Positions 6,933-36,229 of a DNA stretch of 64,000 nucleotides are shown one piece after another; the stretch's first letter is position 1, and each line of letters starts with the position of its first letter. Position numbers and translations under genes: made by a program. The stretch is from Candidatus Palauibacter sp. (GTDB lineage: Bacteria; Gemmatimonadota; Gemmatimonadetes; Palauibacterales; Palauibacteraceae), in the NCBI RefSeq assembly GCF_965216145.1, contig NZ_OZ244149.1, positions 1,100,797 through 1,164,796 on the forward strand. Reading direction: 5' to 3'. The notes beneath the pieces are model-generated. The model was not told the origin of the DNA, ran no database searches, and saw only the letters and a list, made by a program, of their open reading frames with translations.

Positions 6933-8219
6933 CTATTGCTGGAGTCGCAGGACGAAGAGGCCCTCGTCCCGGCTGGTGGCGACGAAGAGGCCGCTCTCGA
7001 ACCAGGGGTAGGTCGACCAGGAGCCGCCGAACGTCTGGTCGTCATGGTCCGGTACCGTGTCGAAGAAGCCGCGCTCCACGGGATTCGCCGGATTCGAGAT
7101 GTCGAGGATCCGCACGCCGAACGTGTAGTTGGAGTGGTAGATCACATCCTCGTGGACGTAGATGTTGTGGTCGATGGCTCCGGTGGGGCCCAGGTGCTCC
7201 GTGACGAGGACCGGATCGTCCAGATCGACCATGTCCCATACCAGCATGCGCGTGCGTGAGACCCGGTTGTTTCTTTCATCCCCTTCATCGTTCTGGTAGA
7301 AATACCGGTGATCCTCGCTCAGCCATCCCTGATGGATGTAGTCGTGGTCGGCGTAGGAGGCGGTCGACAACGTCGTCGGGTTCGCCTTGTCGGTCACGTC
7401 CGACACGACGACCGCGGTCTCATTCGAGCCCACGCAGATCTCGCGGCCCGCGTGTTCCGCGTCGGGACCTCGATAGACGACGCACTGGACATCGTGGGTG
7501 TATCCAGTCCCATGCCAACCGGTGCCTGCCTCGGCGTGGCAACCCGCGAAGGTAGGGTTCTTCGGATCCGAGAGGTCGATCATGTGCAGGCCGCCCCCGC
7601 ACGTTTCGCCACCGGAGTTGCTTCCGACGGCGTACGCGAAGCCGGTCTCTTCGTTGATCGCGAGGTTGTGGACAGCGCTCACATTCCGGTATCTGGCGTC
7701 CGCGCTCAGTTCCGTGAACTCAGTCAACTCACGAAGCCGCGTGAGGTCGAGCACCTGGATCCCGTGCCCCGTAATCTCCGAGACGACGTACACGTGATCC
7801 GCATACACTTTCATGTCCCGCCAGAGGGTCTCCGAGAAGGCGGAGGGCATGAACGCGACCGGCCTCGGTTCGACCGGGTTGGAGAGATCGACGATCGAGA
7901 GGCCGTCGAAGTGCCCGACGAGGGCGTACTCCACCCCCGTCTGCGGATCGGTCCACCCCCAGATGTCGTTCAGGGAGGTGGCCATCCTTCCCGGCCGCAA
8001 CTCGCGCGGAAGCAGCCACCCCACCAGGTCCACGCCCTCGCACGGGAACCCGCGGGCCGTGCCGCCCTGGCAGGGGGCGAGCAGCGTGGCGACGGGTTCG
8101 GGCGGCGGCGGTTCCGGCGGATCGACCGGACCCGTCGCGCTTTCGCCGCACGCCACCGAGAGAAAAGCCAGCAGGAGAGTCGCGCCTCGCACCGAGGCGG
8201 GGATGCGCTTGGCAGTCAT
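6933..8219 (-). CDS. choice-of-anchor B / LVIVD-repeat lipoprotein, paralog 3 (short Pro linker)
   Basis: Leader MTAKRIPASVRGATLLLAFLSVACGES, then the conserved domain. The ORF-track N-terminal extension (to 8702) is Arg/Gly-rich junk that overlaps the upstream gene. Start taken at the ATG at 8217-8219. Confidence 0.7.
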   Translation of the reverse strand: MTAKRIPASVRGATLLLAFLSVACGESATGPVDPPEPPPPEPVATLLAPCQGGTARGFPCEGVDLVGWLLPRELRPGRMATSLNDIWGWTDPQTGVEYALVGHFDGLSIVDLSNPVEPRPVAFMPSAFSETLWRDMKVYADHVYVVSEITGHGIQVLDLTRLRELTEFTELSADARYRNVSAVHNLAINEETGFAYAVGSNSGGETCGGGLHMIDLSDPKNPTFAGCHAEAGTGWHGTGYTHDVQCVVYRGPDAEHAGREICVGSNETAVVVSDVTDKANPTTLSTASYADHDYIHQGWLSEDHRYFYQNDEGDERNNRVSRTRMLVWDMVDLDDPVLVTEHLGPTGAIDHNIYVHEDVIYHSNYTFGVRILDISNPANPVERGFFDTVPDHDDQTFGGSWSTYPWFESGLFVATSRDEGLFVLRLQQ

Positions 8220-31236: not shown

Positions 31237-33588
31237 ATGGATCGACGAGTGCTCTCAGTGGCGGCGGCGCTGGTCTTCGCGTTGCCGGCGGGCGTCGCCG
31301 CGCAGCAGTTCGGCGGTGCGCTGGCGGTGAGCGGCGATCAGGTGCTGGTCGGCGAGGCCGGCAACGGGACGATGTCGGGGATCGTGTGGGTCTTCGGCCG
31401 AACCGCCGCGGGCTGGACCGAGACGGGCCAGGTCACGGTGTCCGACGAGATACGGGTGCCGGACGGCTTCGGGCGCGCGATCGCCGCACGCGGGGAGTGG
31501 TTGTGGGCGGGCGCGCCGCTCGAAGGGGACGGCGCCGGCGCGGTCTACGTGTTCCGGGCGGACGGATCGGGCGGATGGGAGCAGGCCGCCCGGCTCGAAG
31601 CGCCCGAGGGCGGGGGCGGGGCGTTCGGCAGCGCGATTGCCGTGTCGGAAGATATCGTGATCGTGTCTGCTCCCGGGGCGGACGATGGACGGGGCGCCGT
31701 GTTCTGGTACGGCCGCGGGCCGGACGGTGCGTTTTCCCCCGGCGGGCCGGTGCAGCCGCCGACCGGCGTGGCCGCCTCCGGCTTCGGCGCGGCGCTGGCG
31801 TTGGACGGTGACGCGCTGCTCGTGAGCACGCGCGAGGACGATGTCGGACGGCCCGCCGTATTCGCGTTCGACCGCGACGCCTCGGGCCTGTGGACGTTCG
31901 GCGGCAACCTCGAAGCACCTTCGCTCGCGGAGCGCAGCGGCTATGGCACCTCGCTCGCGGTGCGGGACGGCTTCGCGCTCGTGGGTGCTCCGGCGCTCCG
32001 GGAGAGCGGTGGGGCGGTGTTCGCGTTCGCGCGGGGGCCGGAGGGCTGGGGCCTGGAAGCCCGGCTCGGCCCGCTGCTGCCCGAACCCAACGCGCAGTTC
32101 GGATCTTCGATCGGCTTCGATGGCGACGAGATCCTCATCGGGGCGCCGGGCAGCATGATCGGCGCCGGCACCCTGTATGCCTACCGGCGCGATACCAACG
32201 GCCGCTGGAGCGAGGCCTCCGTCCTGATGCGCTCGCCGCTGGGGGAGCGCTCGAGCTTCGCCGGCACCGCCGTCCTTTCCGGCGACCACCTCGTCGTGGG
32301 CGCGACGGGCGTGGATTCCCGGGCCGGTGCCGCCGTCGTCTACGAGCGATCCGGAGCGGGCACCTGGGAAGAGCACGGCACCCTGGTCAACGACTATCGC
32401 GGCTTCCCCGCCATCGCGGGCGAGGAGATCGAATGCCTCGAGGGCAACGCCACGATCTTCGAGTGCCGGGACGTGAACATCACGGCGTTCCTGCCGATCA
32501 AGGATCTCGGCGGAACCCGGGCCACCCGCGTCAACGACATCTGGGGCTGGACCGACCCGGACACGGGCCGCGAGATCGCGCTCGTCGGACGGACGGACGG
32601 CACCTCGTTCGTCGACGTCAGCGACCCCTACCACCCCCGCTTTCTCGGCGACCTTCCGGCCACCGAGGGCTCGCGGCACATGATCTGGCGCGACATCAAG
32701 GTGTATCGCGATCACGCCTACATCGTCGCCGACGCCGCCCTCGAGCACGGGGTGCAGGTCTTCGATCTCCGGCAACTGCGAGACGTTGGGGACGAACCCG
32801 TGACGTTCGAGGAGACCTACCTCTACGACGGGATCCATTCGGCCCACAACATCGTCATCAACGAAGAGACCGGCTTCGCCTATGCGGTCGGGAACAGCGG
32901 CGGCGGCGAGACCTGCGGCGGCGGCCTCCACATGATCGACCTGGAAGACCCGGCCCGGCCCGTCTTCGCCGGCTGCTTCGCGCAGGAAGGGACGGGGCGC
33001 CGCGGCACCGGATACGTACACGACGCCCAGTGCGTCATCTATCAAGGGCCCGACACGGAGCACGCCGGCAAGGAGATCTGCCTCGGCTCCAACGAGACCG
33101 CGTTCAACATCGCCGACGTCAGCGACAAGGACGCCCCGATCGGCCTCGCCACGATCCGCTATCCGAACGTGGCCTATGCGCACCAGGGCTGGCTGACGGA
33201 CGACCACCGCTACTTCTACATGAACGACGAGGGGGACGAGCCCCAGGGCCTCGTGGCCGGGACGCGCACGCTGGTGTGGGACGTGACGGACCTCGACGAC
33301 CCTGTCCTCGCCAAGGAGTACATCGCCGAGACGACGGCCACCGACCACAACCTCTACATCGTCGGCGACCTCATGTACCAGTCGAACTACTCGGCCGGTT
33401 TCCGGGTCCTCGACATCTCGGATCCGGAAAACCCGGTCGAGATCGGCTTCTTCGACACATCCCCGTACGAGGGCGGCGCGTCGTGGAGCAACTACCCGTT
33501 CTTCGAGAGCGGGACGATCGCCGTGACGGGAACGGGCGACGGGCTGTTCCTCCTCAAGAACATGGCGAGACCTCGCCTCGTGCCGTGA
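31237..33588 (+). CDS. fusion protein: FG-GAP-like repeat propeller (about 7 repeats) plus C-terminal choice-of-anchor B / LVIVD domain
   Basis: Signal MDRRVLSVAAALVFALPAGVAAQ. Repeats of type GAVYVFRADGSGGWEQAARLEAP. C-terminal half has NDIWGWTDPDTGREIALVG...VYRDHAYIVADA...YAVGNSGGGETCGGGLHMIDL...HQGW, homologous to the 3847-8219 paralogs. Confidence 0.75.
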   Translation: MDRRVLSVAAALVFALPAGVAAQQFGGALAVSGDQVLVGEAGNGTMSGIVWVFGRTAAGWTETGQVTVSDEIRVPDGFGRAIAARGEWLWAGAPLEGDGAGAVYVFRADGSGGWEQAARLEAPEGGGGAFGSAIAVSEDIVIVSAPGADDGRGAVFWYGRGPDGAFSPGGPVQPPTGVAASGFGAALALDGDALLVSTREDDVGRPAVFAFDRDASGLWTFGGNLEAPSLAERSGYGTSLAVRDGFALVGAPALRESGGAVFAFARGPEGWGLEARLGPLLPEPNAQFGSSIGFDGDEILIGAPGSMIGAGTLYAYRRDTNGRWSEASVLMRSPLGERSSFAGTAVLSGDHLVVGATGVDSRAGAAVVYERSGAGTWEEHGTLVNDYRGFPAIAGEEIECLEGNATIFECRDVNITAFLPIKDLGGTRATRVNDIWGWTDPDTGREIALVGRTDGTSFVDVSDPYHPRFLGDLPATEGSRHMIWRDIKVYRDHAYIVADAALEHGVQVFDLRQLRDVGDEPVTFEETYLYDGIHSAHNIVINEETGFAYAVGNSGGGETCGGGLHMIDLEDPARPVFAGCFAQEGTGRRGTGYVHDAQCVIYQGPDTEHAGKEICLGSNETAFNIADVSDKDAPIGLATIRYPNVAYAHQGWLTDDHRYFYMNDEGDEPQGLVAGTRTLVWDVTDLDDPVLAKEYIAETTATDHNLYIVGDLMYQSNYSAGFRVLDISDPENPVEIGFFDTSPYEGGASWSNYPFFESGTIAVTGTGDGLFLLKNMARPRLVP

Positions 33589-34031
33589 CCGAAGCGGCCC
33601 GGCCCGCCGACCTGAGCCTCGAGGGCCCGATCGTCCTCTTCGACGGCGTCTGCAACCTGTGTGCGGGCGCCGTCCGCTTCATCATCCCGCGGGACCGGCG
33701 CGGCCGTTTCCGCTTCGCTTCCCTGCAGTCGGAGGCGGGTCGCCGGATCCTCGCTCACGTCGGCCTTGCCCTGGACGCTGAGGATCCTGCCGAGTGGTCG
33801 CTGGTCCTCGTTGCGAACGGCCGGGGCTACCTGCGGAGCGCAGCCGCCCTCCGTATCGCTGCCGGTCTCGGTCGCGGGTGGCCGCTAGTCGCGGTTTTCC
33901 TCGTCGTCCCCGCCCCGCTGCGCGATCTCGCCTACCGCTTCGTGGCCCGGAACCGATACCGATGGTTCGGCCGGAAGACGGCCTGCGAACTTCCACGGAC
34001 CGAGGAAAGCTCGCGGTTCCTCGACACCTAG
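33585..34031 (+). CDS. DCC1-like thiol-disulfide oxidoreductase (DUF393)
   Basis: PIVLFDGVCNLCAGAVRFI is the DUF393 CxxC signature. GTG start overlaps the upstream TGA (GTGA). Confidence 0.65.
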   Translation: MTEAARPADLSLEGPIVLFDGVCNLCAGAVRFIIPRDRRGRFRFASLQSEAGRRILAHVGLALDAEDPAEWSLVLVANGRGYLRSAAALRIAAGLGRGWPLVAVFLVVPAPLRDLAYRFVARNRYRWFGRKTACELPRTEESSRFLDT

Positions 34032-34185
34032 GCGCTTCACCGAAGCTCCTCCCCGTCTTCGCACATCCGGCTCACTGCCGATCGTTCGCCCCACTCCTCC
34101 GTCTTGATAGCGGGATGCTTCCGGACCGGACCCTGCGCTGGACCCTTTTGCGCTCTCTGGAAGAATCGCGGAGAGAGGGGCCGGC

Positions 34186-34257
34186 GGGGGCGGTACTGGT
34201 GTACCCGGTGCGGGCTTGACACTCAACCGGCGGGGTTCGATTCCCCGCGCCTCCACC
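34186..34257 (+). other. tRNA-like element 1 (canonical T-arm and 7-bp acceptor with G3:U70 and discriminator A, ends CC; non-canonical anticodon region)
   Basis: CGGGG-TTCGATT-CCCCG T-arm. Acceptor GGGGGCG / CGCCTCC. D-like hairpin GTAC-TGGT-GTAC. Middle hairpin CCGGT / ACCGG with a 16-nt loop instead of a 7-nt anticodon loop. Coordinates +/-2. Confidence 0.35.
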
Positions 34258-34280
34258 TTCCCCTCGAACGGAGGGTCGGC

Positions 34281-34353
34281 GGGGACGGTACTGGTGTACC
34301 CGGTTCCGGACTTGACACCCAACCGGCGGGGTTTGATTCCCCGCGCCTCCACC
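34281..34353 (+). other. tRNA-like element 2 (diverged tandem copy of element 1; T-loop TTTGATT; one acceptor mismatch)
   Basis: Same architecture 24 nt downstream of element 1. The 13-nt leaders preceding the two elements are also similar. Confidence 0.3.
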
Positions 34354-34402
34354 TATCCCTCTACGTTTCAACCTATTGCGGGCTCGCGGATCCGTAAAGC
34401 AG

Positions 34403-36229
34403 CTACGGGGCGCCACGCTCGTGGACGACGCGCCCGCCGACGATCGTGTACAGCGCCTCGGCATCGAGCAGCCGCGCGGGGGCGTCCCGTCCGGCTTCGA
34501 TCAGATCCACGTCGAACACCGCGATGTCCGCCAGCTTGCCGGGCGTCAGCGTGCCCTTGATCTCTTCCTCGAACGAGGCCCAGGCGGGGTTCCGCGTGTA
34601 GGCTTCGATCGCCTCCTCGATCGTCAGCCGCTGCTCCGGGAACCAGCCCTCGGCCGGCTCGCCGGCGAGCGTCTGTCGGCTCACCGCCGCGTACAGGCCG
34701 TACCTCGGATGCAGGAAGTAGCGGGCCGCGTTCGTCCCGGGGCTGTCGCTCCCGAACACGAGCACCGCCCCCGCGTCCTTCAGCGCCCGGAACGCGTATG
34801 CGCCGCGCGACCGCTCGGAGCCGATCCTCTCCTCCATCCAGCGCATGTCGTCCGATATGTGGTACGGGTTCACCTCCGCCACGAGGTTGAGTTCGCCGAA
34901 GCGGTGGAAGTCCGCCTCCTCCACGACCTGCGCGTGGATCATCCGCCAGCGGTGGTCCGCCTCGATCATGTCGTTGTCGCTCAACACAGCCTCAAACAGG
35001 TCGAGCAGGACCTTCACCGCCTTGTCGCCGATGGCGTGGATGTGAGGCGGGAGGCCGGTCGGCACGGCCTCCTCCATGAGGCGTTGGAGGTTCCCCTTCG
35101 GGAACTCGGTGTAGTTCTGGTCCCGGGCCAGCGACAGCGCGAGACCGTCGATGCCCTCGGGAAGCATGATCTGACGCACGATCCCGAAGTTGCCGGGCGC
35201 GTGGTCGTATTCCTCGTAGAACATGGCGCTCGAGCCGCCCATGATGCCGTCGACCCACGCCTTGTAGCCGATGAAGCGGAGCCAGTCGTCGCCGAAGCCG
35301 CGCGTGATGCCGAGCCCGCCGGTGTGGGTCACGTTGTCGAGCGAGGGACGGATGTTGATGCGGGCGGTCAGCTCGCCGCGCGCCCGCAGTTCCTGGTAGG
35401 CACGCAACTGCTCGGAGGAGGTGATGTCCTGGATCGTGGTCACGCCGCCCTCGCGCGCCTCCCGGAGCACGGCGCGAACCTCGGTGAGACGCTGCTCGAA
35501 CGACTTGGGCGTGATGGCGGCCTGGACGAGGTCGACGGCGGTGCCGGTGAGGATGCCCGTGACCCGGCCGTCCTCGGCCTTCGCGATCGTGCCGCCCTGA
35601 GGCGCGGGTGTGGCGTCCGTGATGCCGGCCAGCTCCAGCGCGAGGCTGTTCGCGAGGTACATCGAGCGGTCGAAGCGGTTCACCAGGACCGGGTGATCCG
35701 GGGTCACGTCGTCGATGAGATCGCGGTGCGGCGTGAACGGCCCGTCAGCTCCGGCCTCGCCCGCCTCCGCACCGCCGCCATCACCCTCGCGGCCCGTCGA
35801 GCCGACCTCCCATTGCTCGTAAGCGCCCCAGTCGCCGCGCGTGATCCAGCTCCCGGGCGCGAGACGCTGCACCGCCTGCGCAATCTCCTCGCGGAAGCCC
35901 TCCGGCTCGTGCACCTCCAGCAGGTTGACGCCCACGATCAAAGCCCCCGTGCTCTCGACATGCACGTGGCCATCGTTGAAGCCCGGCGAGACGAAGGCGC
36001 CGTCCAGGTCGATGACGCGCGTGTCGCGCCCCACCAGCGCCTCGGCCTCCGCGTTCGAGCCTACAACCGCGATGCGCTCCCCGCGGATCGCGATCGCCTC
36101 GGCGGCGGGCCGCTCATCGTCGAGCGTGTACACGTCCCCGTTGATCAGCACGAGGTCGGCCGGGTCCTCCGGTCCCGCGGTCCCGCAGGCGGCCAGCAGG
36201 ACGAGCGCGGCGATGTTCCACTTCTTCAT
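34403..36229 (-). CDS. amidohydrolase 3 family protein (lipoprotein)
   Basis: MKKWNIAALVLLAACG lipobox. PGFNDGHVHV metal-binding motif. C-terminal VFGSDSPGT and LADIAVFDVD motifs of the Amidohydro_3 family. Confidence 0.8.
   Translation of the reverse strand: MKKWNIAALVLLAACGTAGPEDPADLVLINGDVYTLDDERPAAEAIAIRGERIAVVGSNAEAEALVGRDTRVIDLDGAFVSPGFNDGHVHVESTGALIVGVNLLEVHEPEGFREEIAQAVQRLAPGSWITRGDWGAYEQWEVGSTGREGDGGGAEAGEAGADGPFTPHRDLIDDVTPDHPVLVNRFDRSMYLANSLALELAGITDATPAPQGGTIAKAEDGRVTGILTGTAVDLVQAAITPKSFEQRLTEVRAVLREAREGGVTTIQDITSSEQLRAYQELRARGELTARINIRPSLDNVTHTGGLGITRGFGDDWLRFIGYKAWVDGIMGGSSAMFYEEYDHAPGNFGIVRQIMLPEGIDGLALSLARDQNYTEFPKGNLQRLMEEAVPTGLPPHIHAIGDKAVKVLLDLFEAVLSDNDMIEADHRWRMIHAQVVEEADFHRFGELNLVAEVNPYHISDDMRWMEERIGSERSRGAYAFRALKDAGAVLVFGSDSPGTNAARYFLHPRYGLYAAVSRQTLAGEPAEGWFPEQRLTIEEAIEAYTRNPAWASFEEEIKGTLTPGKLADIAVFDVDLIEAGRDAPARLLDAEALYTIVGGRVVHERGAP

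Follow-up and report, generated by a model that had tools for sequence, protein, structure and literature searches.

Tandem compact tRNA-like genes with alanine acceptor determinants and a UGA anticodon-like loop in Candidatus Palauibacter

The stretch of DNA analysed here, 64,000 nucleotides of the Candidatus Palauibacter sp. contig NZ_OZ244149.1 (positions 1,100,797 to 1,164,796; hereafter the window), contains a tandem pair of short genes that are tRNA-shaped, conserved and covarying, and that combine the acceptor determinants of an alanine tRNA with a U33-containing loop carrying UGA. Both belong to a family with covarying helices whose members are spread over several phyla and also occur in phages. 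Judged from sequence, the chances are about even that the two elements are genes for a compact tRNA that is charged by alanyl-tRNA synthetase (AlaRS) and reads serine codons as alanine, a missense tRNA analogous to the allo-tRNAs.

Structure of the two genes

The initial annotation described two tandem tRNA-like elements of 72 and 73 nt at 34186–34353 with an alanine-type acceptor, that is G3:U70 and A73 followed by CC, and both copies do have these features (Table 1). The 7 bp acceptor stem ascribed to each element forms completely in copy 1, with G3:U70 as its third pair and A73 as the discriminator; in copy 2 a G5-to-A change creates an A5·C68 mismatch and six of the seven pairs remain. The D-like hairpin GUAC-UGGU-GUAC and the T arms CGGGG-UUCGAUU-CCCCG (loop UUUGAUU in copy 2) are likewise present as described. 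In copy 1 the hairpin abuts the acceptor strand with zero spacer, nucleotides 8 and 9 being absent, and neither copy has a variable nucleotide between the anticodon arm and the T arm.

The middle domain had been read as a short stem closing a loop of 15–16 nt in place of a canonical anticodon arm. That reading has to be revised, since the presumed large loop holds two to three further pairs, as seen in the fold of copy 1 and in the alignment to the family model. Inside the outer stem (CCGGU/ACCGG in copy 1) the additional pairs are GGG/CUC in copy 1 and GG/CC in copy 2, and in both copies they close the 7 nt loop CUUGACA. The arm as a whole consists of a nine-layer stem with a bulge of 1–2 nt and the loop C-U-UGA-C-A. 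In copy 1 the loop is closed by G–C, G·U and G–C pairs in both the minimum free energy (MFE) fold and the family-model alignment, and because of these closing pairs the frame C32-U33-U34-G35-A36-C37-A38 is fixed. The shifted frame UUGACAC (anticodon GAC, A37) was considered and rejected, as it loses the closing pairs and places a C at position 33 in the CGA variants described below.

Copy 2 starts 95 nt downstream of copy 1, leaving a gap of 23 nt and not the 24 nt given earlier. Its middle domain is 1 nt longer than that of copy 1. The two 95 nt units, including leaders and trailers, align with 87% identity. Each half-motif occurs exactly twice in the window compared with an expectation of zero, and a scan of the 64 kb with the family model R1 (see below) found no third copy. 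In copy 1 the GAGGGG of the leader can pair with the CCCCUC of the trailer, as judged from their complementarity. A simple σ70 scan called no promoter in the intergenic region, and no canonical terminator was called there either; the sole terminator-like site (33878–33892) lies inside the upstream gene.

Conservation in Candidatus Palauibacter

One genome per species was scanned with the pattern GGGG-N2-G-N3-CTGG, a gap of 20–50, GGTTYRANTCC, N6 and CTCCACC. This returned 28 loci, referred to here by L numbers together with those from the later scans. Three of them (L004, L006 and L020) are in Candidatus Palauibacter (Gemmatimonadota) and are syntenic with the window, with a nucleotide identity of 88–92%. 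The tandem pair adjoins the same amidohydrolase gene in all four Palauibacter genomes; synteny extends to both sides in L004 and L006, and is seen on the amidohydrolase side in L020. One copy in L006, with the T loop UUCGAUC, was missed by the pattern.

Within the pair, substitutions among the four genomes are limited to loop position 34, the inner stem and the small bulge. Apart from A5 of copy 2, which is common to the window and L004, there is no change in the acceptor, D, outer anticodon or T helices. The orthologues of copy 2 in L006 and L020 have G5 and the T loop UUCGAUU, with C56, and the change of C56 to U in copy 2 is confined to the window. The A5·C68 mismatch and the C56-to-U change may represent early decay of one copy or may be tolerated. 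In L020 the two loops are CUCGACA (CGA) and CUUGACA (UGA). The GAGGG leader and CCCUC trailer are kept in all eight Palauibacter copies. An upstream block containing TTGATA is also kept in the four genomes, in contrast to the adjoining intergenic DNA, and a downstream block (34362–34402) is similarly conserved.

The wider family

Relatives were collected by the pattern scan of species genomes, by a relaxed scan of viral contigs and by a single metagenome scan. Only the matches listed in the metagenome scan enter the family counts, which are therefore lower bounds, and frequencies are not representative. The family pattern fixed G1–G4, YUGG, the T loop and C69–A73. Among the matches listed, the three scans yielded many sequences of 67–72 nt with the layout seen in the window. 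Two observations on the raw matches are unbiased by selection for base pairing. In 48 of 144 distinct raw matches (66–72 nt) the four D-stem positions unconstrained by the pattern show full complementarity, compared with a mean of 5.3 and a maximum of 13 of 144 in shuffles. All 48 fully D-paired compact matches have U70, although the pattern allowed C70, which is present in 13 other matches.

A covariance model, R1, was built from ten sequences of other lineages, none of them from Palauibacter. Both window copies lie outside this seed and score 71.5 bits (E ≃ 1e-17) and 64.3 bits (E ≃ 1e-15), while canonical tRNAs in the same loci reach at most 43.5 bits and tmRNA (transfer-messenger RNA) 3′ ends about 26 bits. 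In the seed 94% of the cells are paired, compared with about 50% when the alignment is slid, and 19 of the 25 pairs have changes on both sides. With 57 distinct relatives aligned to R1, 92.6% of the pair cells are paired versus 45–60% when slid; this alignment is fitted to the model and the pairing figure depends on that fit. Compensatory changes occur in all nine pairs of the long middle helix in these 57 sequences. The model also found a member that the pattern had missed (L028:4994–5061), which starts with GGGC and has both G3:U70 and the loop CUUGACA.

The family consensus has a 7 bp acceptor stem with G3:U70 and A73, no nucleotides 8 or 9, and a 4 bp D stem with a tetraloop (UGGU in 45 of 57 relatives). 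The anticodon-type arm has 8–9 layers, often with one mismatch or a small bulge, and ends in a 7 nt loop; a variable loop of 0–3 nt precedes a canonical T arm, the loop of which is UUCGAUU in 44 of the 57. Two layouts can be distinguished. Type I, with a 1 nt linker, a seven-layer stem, a 7 nt loop and a 3 nt variable loop, comes mostly from phage contigs. In type II linkers are absent and the stem has nine layers; its members come mostly from cellular genomes and metagenomes, and the window copies are of this type. The suggestion in the initial annotation that the elements represent an unusual tRNA-like RNA is supported.

Two members (L002:35–104 and L021:539–609) pair better as an 8 bp acceptor and a 4 bp T stem if they are started one G upstream and, judged by eye, may be 8/4 variants as in allo-tRNAs. 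A 309 bp stretch that includes a compact tRNA occurs twice, inverted and 100% identical, in the Pyrinomonadaceae chromosome OY970389.1 (L001:1–309 and L012:6087–6395).

Anticodon-like loop and acceptor identity

The family loop behaves like an anticodon loop. Among 55 relatives U33 is present in 52 and A38 in 50, while positions 34–36 show 20 different triplets among the matches listed; at position 37 C is commonest (28), followed by A (16) and G (11). The initial annotation named an overlooked anticodon as grounds for refuting its reading, and this holds in part: UGA is there, but the match that reveals it was made by the family-specific model, standard tRNA models giving none. In viral contigs, a search for TTGACA combined with a T arm gave only canonical tRNAs or chance matches among the first 120 listed.

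Cellular type II members join the G3:U70 acceptor to non-alanine anticodons. AlaRS recognizes G3:U70 and ignores the anticodon. Among the matches listed, UGA or CGA occurs in at least about 14 independent lineages, including Palauibacter, Pyrinomonadaceae, Chitinophagales, Peribacteria and Patescibacteria with a Doudnabacteria metagenome-assembled genome (MAG), as well as the metagenome contigs L148, L167, L176, L202, L226 and L227 and the viral contig L113. UUA is found in at least about nine and CUA in at least three members or lineages. GUC, UGU, CUG, UAG, UAA, UCC, CAU, UAC, GAG and others complete the set, and UCA is absent from the family members collected. UGA and CGA copies have come to form a pair on at least two occasions, once in Palauibacter L020 and once in the metagenome contig L202. 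This variation, confined to position 34, looks like that of isoacceptors for UCA and UCG.

In viral arrays of 15–36 tRNA genes (contigs L040, L055, L089, L106 and L111), ARAGORN annotates a type I compact RNA with UGC as the tRNA-Ala(UGC), and this is the sole tRNA-Ala in L055, L089 and L106. The closest match to such a compact phage tRNA-Ala in cultured phages is a canonical tRNA-Ala. This use in phage arrays, together with the likeness to active tRNAPyl (pyrrolysine tRNA) and mitochondrial tRNASer(UCN) (mt-tRNASer), makes it very probable from context that the compact architecture is competent for translation.

Compact tRNAs without linkers and with a 4 bp D stem and a tetraloop also occur with non-alanine acceptors and matching anticodons (UGU, UCG and CAU), at L040:13700–13768, L046:8668–8735, L099:5513–5581, L144:495–562 and L211:2317–2386. 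Where this was checked (L040, L046 and L099) they lie within or adjoin phage tRNA arrays, so the compact core appears to be a general phage tRNA form.

Proposed function

We propose that the transcript would be processed as a tRNA, RNase P cutting at G1 and the 3′ end being trimmed. A76 would have to be added post-transcriptionally because the DNA reads ACC-T. Such processing and CCA completion of the window RNAs are likely from their sequence. AlaRS would charge the RNA with alanine through G3:U70 without reading the anticodon, and given the acceptor determinants we regard this step as quite probable. The alanylated RNA would be taken to the ribosome, where the UGA anticodon would read UCA, and perhaps UCG, and insert alanine for serine; the CGA of the sister copies would read UCG. 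For ribosomal reading of this kind the prospects fall a little short of even. An engineered tRNAAla with CGA or UGA decodes TCG and TCA in Escherichia coli (PMC12269064). Decoding by the window RNAs would probably be weak or conditional, because C37 lies beside A36, TCG is the commonest serine codon of the host and relatives target frequent codons (GAC). Physiologically, the pair may serve regulated mistranslation, or may act in conflicts with mobile DNA, either as a weapon or as an addiction element.

Several observations weigh against this proposal. ARAGORN calls zero tRNA or tmRNA genes in the window, and Rfam 15 at its gathering scores gives zero matches there, its tRNA models rejecting both copies. 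At a permissive E-value the sub-threshold matches are mascRNA (33.9 bits, threshold 42.5), two tmRNA termini (RF00023, 26.1 bits, threshold 47) and, for copy 2, tRNA-Sec (17 bits). The tmRNA termini are the best clan match, in keeping with the resemblance to tmRNA ends noted earlier, and tRNA (RF00005, gathering score 29) therefore scores below 26.1 bits. Three other type II loci, like the window, match no Rfam 15 family at threshold. The gain in folding of single sequences over shuffles is modest (copies 1 and 2 have z values of −1.9 and −0.6), copy 2 carries A5·C68 and U56, and the sampling of the family was anchored on the fixed positions of the pattern. With respect to decoding, C37 (or G37) beside A36 is atypical for a decoding tRNA. 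TCG makes up about 20 per 1000 codons in the window, where it is the commonest serine codon (TCA, about 2 per 1000), and at that frequency an efficient serine-to-alanine decoder would be harmful. The relatives with GUC would similarly hit the frequent codon GAC, and a crude test of open-frame coverage gave no signal of stop-codon recoding near UUA and CUA members. Some irregular tRNAs are moreover charged and yet unused in translation (Mukai et al., PMC5389517).

A rule by which the family targets rare codons was also tried and rejected: the median codon rank is 0.42, and TCA is always below the median, but the targets GAC and GTA are frequent.

A bolder extension, which we consider unlikely, is that the family forms an AlaRS-charged, tRNAPyl-like compact class that is freely re-targeted (to UCA/UCG, UAA, UAG, GAC and others). 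The Palauibacter pair would deliberately read serine as alanine, and members elsewhere would be the toxic or addictive cargo of insertion sequence (IS) and helix–turn–helix (HTH) modules. The main victims could then be AT-richer invaders, because UCA is rare in the host, and nature would have in this pair an equivalent of the refactored-code firewall that was engineered with tRNAAla(CGA/UGA).

Alternative explanations

A structured tRNA-like RNA that may be alanylated and does not decode is a rather unlikely explanation. It would be a regulatory or toxin-like RNA, or an alanine donor for a transferase such as FemX, an alanyl-phosphatidylglycerol synthase or an enzyme of the PEARL type, with the anticodon-like loop serving as a protein-recognition handle. 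Members adjoin IS1-like and IS1595 transposases, XRE-HTH genes and PemK and ParE toxins, two promoter–HTH–tRNA modules are found in L202, and a FemAB-family gene lies 86 nt from the element in L016. C37 or G37 is poor for decoding, and the allo-tRNA(UAU) and G-1 tRNA1 species are charged or toxic and unused in translation (PMC5389517). No protein partner is conserved across the family, however, and the window locus itself lacks IS, HTH, toxin and FemAB neighbours. The near-constant U33, the U/C variation at position 34 only, which resembles isoacceptor logic, and the service of the same architecture as tRNA-Ala(UGC) in phage arrays argue for decoding. The wide variation of the loop on a constant scaffold and the links to phages, toxin–antitoxin genes and mobile DNA would suit a decoy that mimics tRNA-Ser(UGA/CGA) and soaks up an anticodon nuclease, a toxin or a modification enzyme, its alanine acceptor reflecting descent from tRNA-Ala. 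We think this very unlikely: a decoy would not need the G3:U70 pair, which is nevertheless kept throughout the D-paired matches, C37 is unlike the loops of real tRNA-Ser and no nuclease gene is linked.

The two remaining explanations are largely excluded, and we assign both only a slight probability. A miniature tmRNA, consisting of the tRNA-like domain and acting with SmpB in ribosome rescue or blocking it, would fit the best sub-threshold Rfam clan match, the G3:U70 pair and CCUCCACC shared with tmRNA, and the existence of true domain-only mini-tmRNAs in phage contigs. With 26.1 bits, however, the window RNA falls short of the gathering score (47), which those mini-tmRNAs exceed (51–74 bits). 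It combines two features that tmRNA does not have, a paired D hairpin and a long anticodon-like arm whose loop contains U33, and the UUCGAC...GGAC motifs are missing from it. Decaying tRNA-Ala pseudogenes, or the duplicated attachment-site remnant of an integrated element, had been suggested in view of the fact that deletion of one loop A gives CUUGCAC and hence a UGC anticodon; the acceptor mismatch and T-loop change of copy 2 and the lack of a tRNA call by standard tools point the same way. Decay is hard to reconcile with a pair that is kept in four genomes with intact helices, with a loop CUUGACA that recurs unchanged in several phyla, with CGA and UGA pairs in both a sister genome and an unrelated metagenome contig, and with the strong covariation of the family. 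The presence of both halves of the molecule, the absence of an adjacent integrase and the synteny that continues on both sides in L004 and L006 argue against a remnant of integration. A repeat family, also proposed earlier, does not agree with one locus per genome, two copies in the window, a pair conserved with its synteny in four genomes and A5·C68 as the sole helix defect.

Comparison with known RNAs

The window RNAs share with canonical tRNAs a 7 bp acceptor stacked on a 5 bp T stem, a T-Ψ-C-type loop, GG in the D loop and a 7 nt loop with U33 and a variable triplet 34–36, in which C37 is atypical. They lack the connector 8–9, a D loop of 8–11 nt, a 5 bp anticodon stem and a variable region that is 4–5 nt or long. 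G3:U70 and A73 agree with tRNA-Ala, while the anticodon is not NGC: both window copies have UGA, and those of L020 CGA or UGA.

There is a structural likeness to tRNAPyl, especially of the Methanomethylophilus alvus type, and mammalian mt-tRNASer(UCN), which have a compact core and are active in translation (PMC7609411). The window RNAs have the same 0–1 nt linker between the acceptor and D stems, D loop of 4–5 nt, anticodon stem exceeding 5 bp, which may contain an unpaired base or a small internal loop, and variable loop of at most 3 nt. mt-tRNASer(UCN) additionally has G18G19, T-Ψ-C and the anticodon UGA (PMC7609411). In the window RNAs the anticodon stem is longer (8–9 layers), the origin is a bacterial chromosome and the identity is that of alanine rather than pyrrolysine or serine. 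CUA and G73 of tRNAPyl proper are replaced by UGA and A73, and the neighbouring genes at the locus, to which the look for a PylRS partner was confined, are unrelated.

A wide range of anticodons, both sense and nonsense, is also carried by the allo-tRNAs and irregular tRNAs described from Acidobacteria and soil metagenomes (Mukai et al., 2017; PMC5389517). Like the window family, allo-tRNAs owe their identity to an anticodon-blind synthetase (seryl-tRNA synthetase, or AlaRS where G3:U70 is present), have a D-arm tetraloop, and occur in Acidobacteria and metagenomes near toxin–antitoxin and transposon genes. Anticodon diversity uncoupled from identity and such neighbours are found at the level of the family and not at the window locus. 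Allo-tRNAs differ in their 8/4 or 9/3 acceptor/T stems and long variable arm, whereas the window RNAs are 7/5, about 72 nt long and devoid of both a variable arm and an 8/9 linker.

With the tRNA-like domain of tmRNA the window RNAs have in common the acceptor GGGG...CUCCACC with G3:U70, GG in the D region, the UUCGAUU T arm and, as a prediction, charging with alanine. Unlike tmRNAs and mini-tmRNAs, they fall below the Rfam threshold, have an anticodon-like arm and lack an SmpB-type architecture; an element of 72 nt has no mRNA-like domain with a tag frame and pseudoknots. The jakobid mitochondrial ssrA is a domain-only mini-tmRNA.

Mismatch between the anticodon and acceptor identity is known from mistranslating tRNAs such as tRNAProX of Streptomyces (PMC10404621, PMC11415595), and likewise from yeast tRNAAla(CAG) and human tRNAAla anticodon variants; a tRNAAla can change its codon because AlaRS ignores the anticodon. 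Engineered tRNAAla(CGA) and tRNAAla(UGA) in Syn61Δ3 reassign exactly TCG and TCA and form a barrier to phages and plasmids (PMC12269064), and by analogy this pair would be a striking functional counterpart of the Palauibacter pair. All of these natural and engineered tRNAs are canonical cloverleafs, unlike the window RNAs, and the Syn61Δ3 host has no TCA or TCG codons whereas the Palauibacter host uses TCG heavily. Finally, the Staphylococcus aureus cell-wall tRNAGly and Bacillus cereus tRNAOther are non-proteinogenic or tRNA-like charged RNAs (cited in PMC5389517), the likeness being to aminoacylated tRNA-like RNAs that may bypass the ribosome; their structures differ, and no transferase is linked to the window locus.

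No description of a compact Ala-type family was found in the full-text literature searched, which did not cover most subscription papers or the supplementary figures of Mukai et al. (2017), and neither the 2020 review of non-canonical tRNAs (PMC7609411) nor a 2024 review of mistranslating tRNAs describes one. The kind, non-canonical tRNAs with mismatched identity, is already known; to it the present work adds a compact Ala-type family that is widespread in bacteria and phages and apparently undescribed.

Genomic context

As annotated initially, the pair lies between two convergent genes, which encode a DCC1-like protein on the plus strand and an Amidohydro_3 protein on the minus strand. The coordinates given for the former in Table 1 begin with the first codon covered by the Pfam match (amino acid 582 of a 713-amino-acid open reading frame starting at 31890) and end with the stop codon. 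The locus has no transposase, HTH, toxin or FemAB-type neighbours, a BLAST search against annotated plasmids and phages gave no match to it, and it looks like a settled chromosomal gene pair.

All-against-all comparison of the open reading frames within 3 kb of 45 family loci revealed no universal neighbour. The only recurrent ones are IS1-like transposases (adjoining members in L014, L015, L136, L153 and L203), IS1595 transposases (L013, L149, L174 and L180), XRE-HTH proteins and one unknown open reading frame. In five cases the transposase gene is directly 3′ of the element on the same strand, a position that is common for IS1595. Membership of a transposon was considered and dismissed, as no terminal inverted repeats enclose the compact tRNA; in L174 and L217 the IS1595 copy is a secondary insertion past the terminator of the tRNA itself. 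At these loci (L174:1173–1250 and 1335–1380, with an equivalent in L217) an intrinsic terminator comes after the tRNA-like gene, and a second hairpin and T-run lie 16 nt upstream of the gene, so that there is no room for a private promoter.

XRE-HTH genes lie directly 5′ of the compact tRNA in L028, L128 and, twice, L202. The minus strand of L202 (2270–3441) carries two tandem modules of promoter, XRE-HTH gene and compact tRNA, one with UGA and one with CGA, and a similar HTH–tRNA module is present in the Doudnabacteria MAG (L028:5810–6362). Such a module could be a pair of regulator and toxic RNA. PemK and ParE toxin genes are found near members in L013 and L024. In L016, a Patescibacteria MAG and a single case, the FemAB-family gene (274–1230) is convergent with an Ala-type compact tRNA(CGA) at 119–186. 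The FemAB family consists of aminoacyl-tRNA-dependent peptidoglycan transferases. Two Pyrinomonadaceae and one Thermoanaerobaculia (Acidobacteriota) share a conserved protein of 290–330 amino acids that matches nothing in Pfam or NCBIfam; its gene, in the same orientation as the compact tRNA, lies upstream and ends 62 nt before it (L001:214–1095, L014:386–1369 and L015:1266–2270). Small upstream proteins resembling a coiled coil plus winged helix were examined as a partner family and discarded because they did not align as one.

Phage contigs also carry mini-tmRNAs of 61–83 nt, which represent the tRNA-like domain of tmRNA without a tag frame or pseudoknots. Their layout is GGGGGUG..UUGGUUUCGAC, a short hairpin, GGAC, a T arm and CCUCCACCA, and they score above the Rfam tmRNA gathering score. 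They may serve ribosome rescue without tagging, or interfere with host SmpB. In the viral contig L100 a ROOL RNA (7121–7741, 331.8 bits) lies between a tRNA array and a mini-tmRNA. In L019 the 3′ end of tmRNA is present a second time, at a distance of 1.8 kb from the tmRNA gene (326–406 and 2222–2577), a duplication of the kind that typically marks islands integrated into ssrA.

Table 1. Features of the window locus, with transposase genes and mini-tmRNAs of other loci.
Feature	Position	Strand	Remarks
DCC1-like thiol-disulfide oxidoreductase gene	33633–34031	+	Upstream neighbour; Pfam PF04134, E 3e-29
Conserved upstream block	34103–34140	+	-35-like TTGATA at 34104–34109; possible promoter region of the pair (weak)
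Copy 1 leader	34175–34185	+	GAGGGGCCGGC; GAGGGG complementary to trailer CCCCUC at 34260–34265
Compact tRNA-like gene, copy 1	34186–34257	+	72 nt to C75; from sequence, model R1 and MFE fold
Copy 1 acceptor, 5′ strand	34186–34192	+	GGGGGCG
Copy 1 D hairpin	34193–34204	+	GUAC-UGGU-GUAC
Copy 1 anticodon arm	34205–34230	+	Middle domain CCGGUGCGGGCUUGACACUCAACCGG
Copy 1 anticodon-like loop	34215–34221	+	CUUGACA; U33 at 34216, UGA at 34217–34219, then C37 and A38
Copy 1 T arm	34231–34247	+	CGGGG-UUCGAUU-CCCCG
Copy 1 acceptor, 3′ strand	34248–34254	+	CGCCUCC
Copy 1 tail	34255; 34256–34257	+	A73; CC; next base U
Copy 2 leader and trailer	34271–34275; 34357–34361	+	GAGGG; CCCUC; resemble the flanks of copy 1
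Compact tRNA-like gene, copy 2	34281–34353	+	73 nt; from sequence and model R1
Copy 2 acceptor, 5′ strand	34281–34287	+	Carries the A5·C68 mismatch
Copy 2 D hairpin	34288–34299	+	
Copy 2 anticodon arm	34300–34326	+	
Copy 2 anticodon-like loop	34311–34317	+	CUUGACA; UGA at 34313–34315; from model alignment
Copy 2 T arm	34327–34343	+	Loop UUUGAUU
Copy 2 acceptor 3′ strand; A73; CC	34344–34350; 34351; 34352–34353	+	
Conserved block, copy 2 to amidohydrolase stop codon	34362–34402		Possible end of both transcription units
Amidohydro_3 family gene	34403–36229	-	Convergent downstream neighbour; Pfam PF07969, E 1.5e-88
Transposase genes (IS1-like/IS1595)	L014:1783–2844; L015:147–1034; L136:2488–2925; L153:2928–3770		
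Transposase genes (IS1-like/IS1595)	L174:311–1198; L013:2796–3773; L149:2–1015; L180:5287–6312		
Mini-tmRNAs	L041:4080–4146; L043:6437–6500; L058:2847–2929; L032:46–127		
Mini-tmRNAs	L084:713–795; L063:1162–1244; L064:3940–4021; L100:7793–7873		

Significance

If charging and decoding do occur, several bacterial phyla and phages would possess natural suppressor tRNAs of the alanine missense and nonsense kind, and genome annotation would be missing a class of tRNA genes that is invisible to ARAGORN and Rfam. The short list of encoded bacterial mistranslation systems (allo-tRNAs, tRNAProX and selC* tRNACys) would be lengthened, and codon-specific mistranslation as a device of cells or mobile elements in genetic conflicts would become testable. 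A bacterial tRNAPyl-like compact scaffold read by a housekeeping synthetase would be of interest for genetic-code engineering; the UGA and CGA pairs parallel the tRNAs constructed in synthetic biology as a firewall for recoded E. coli. Should decoding not take place, the RNAs would be a new family with the shape of tRNAs and a regulatory or toxin-like role, linked to IS1/IS1595 elements and HTH genes.

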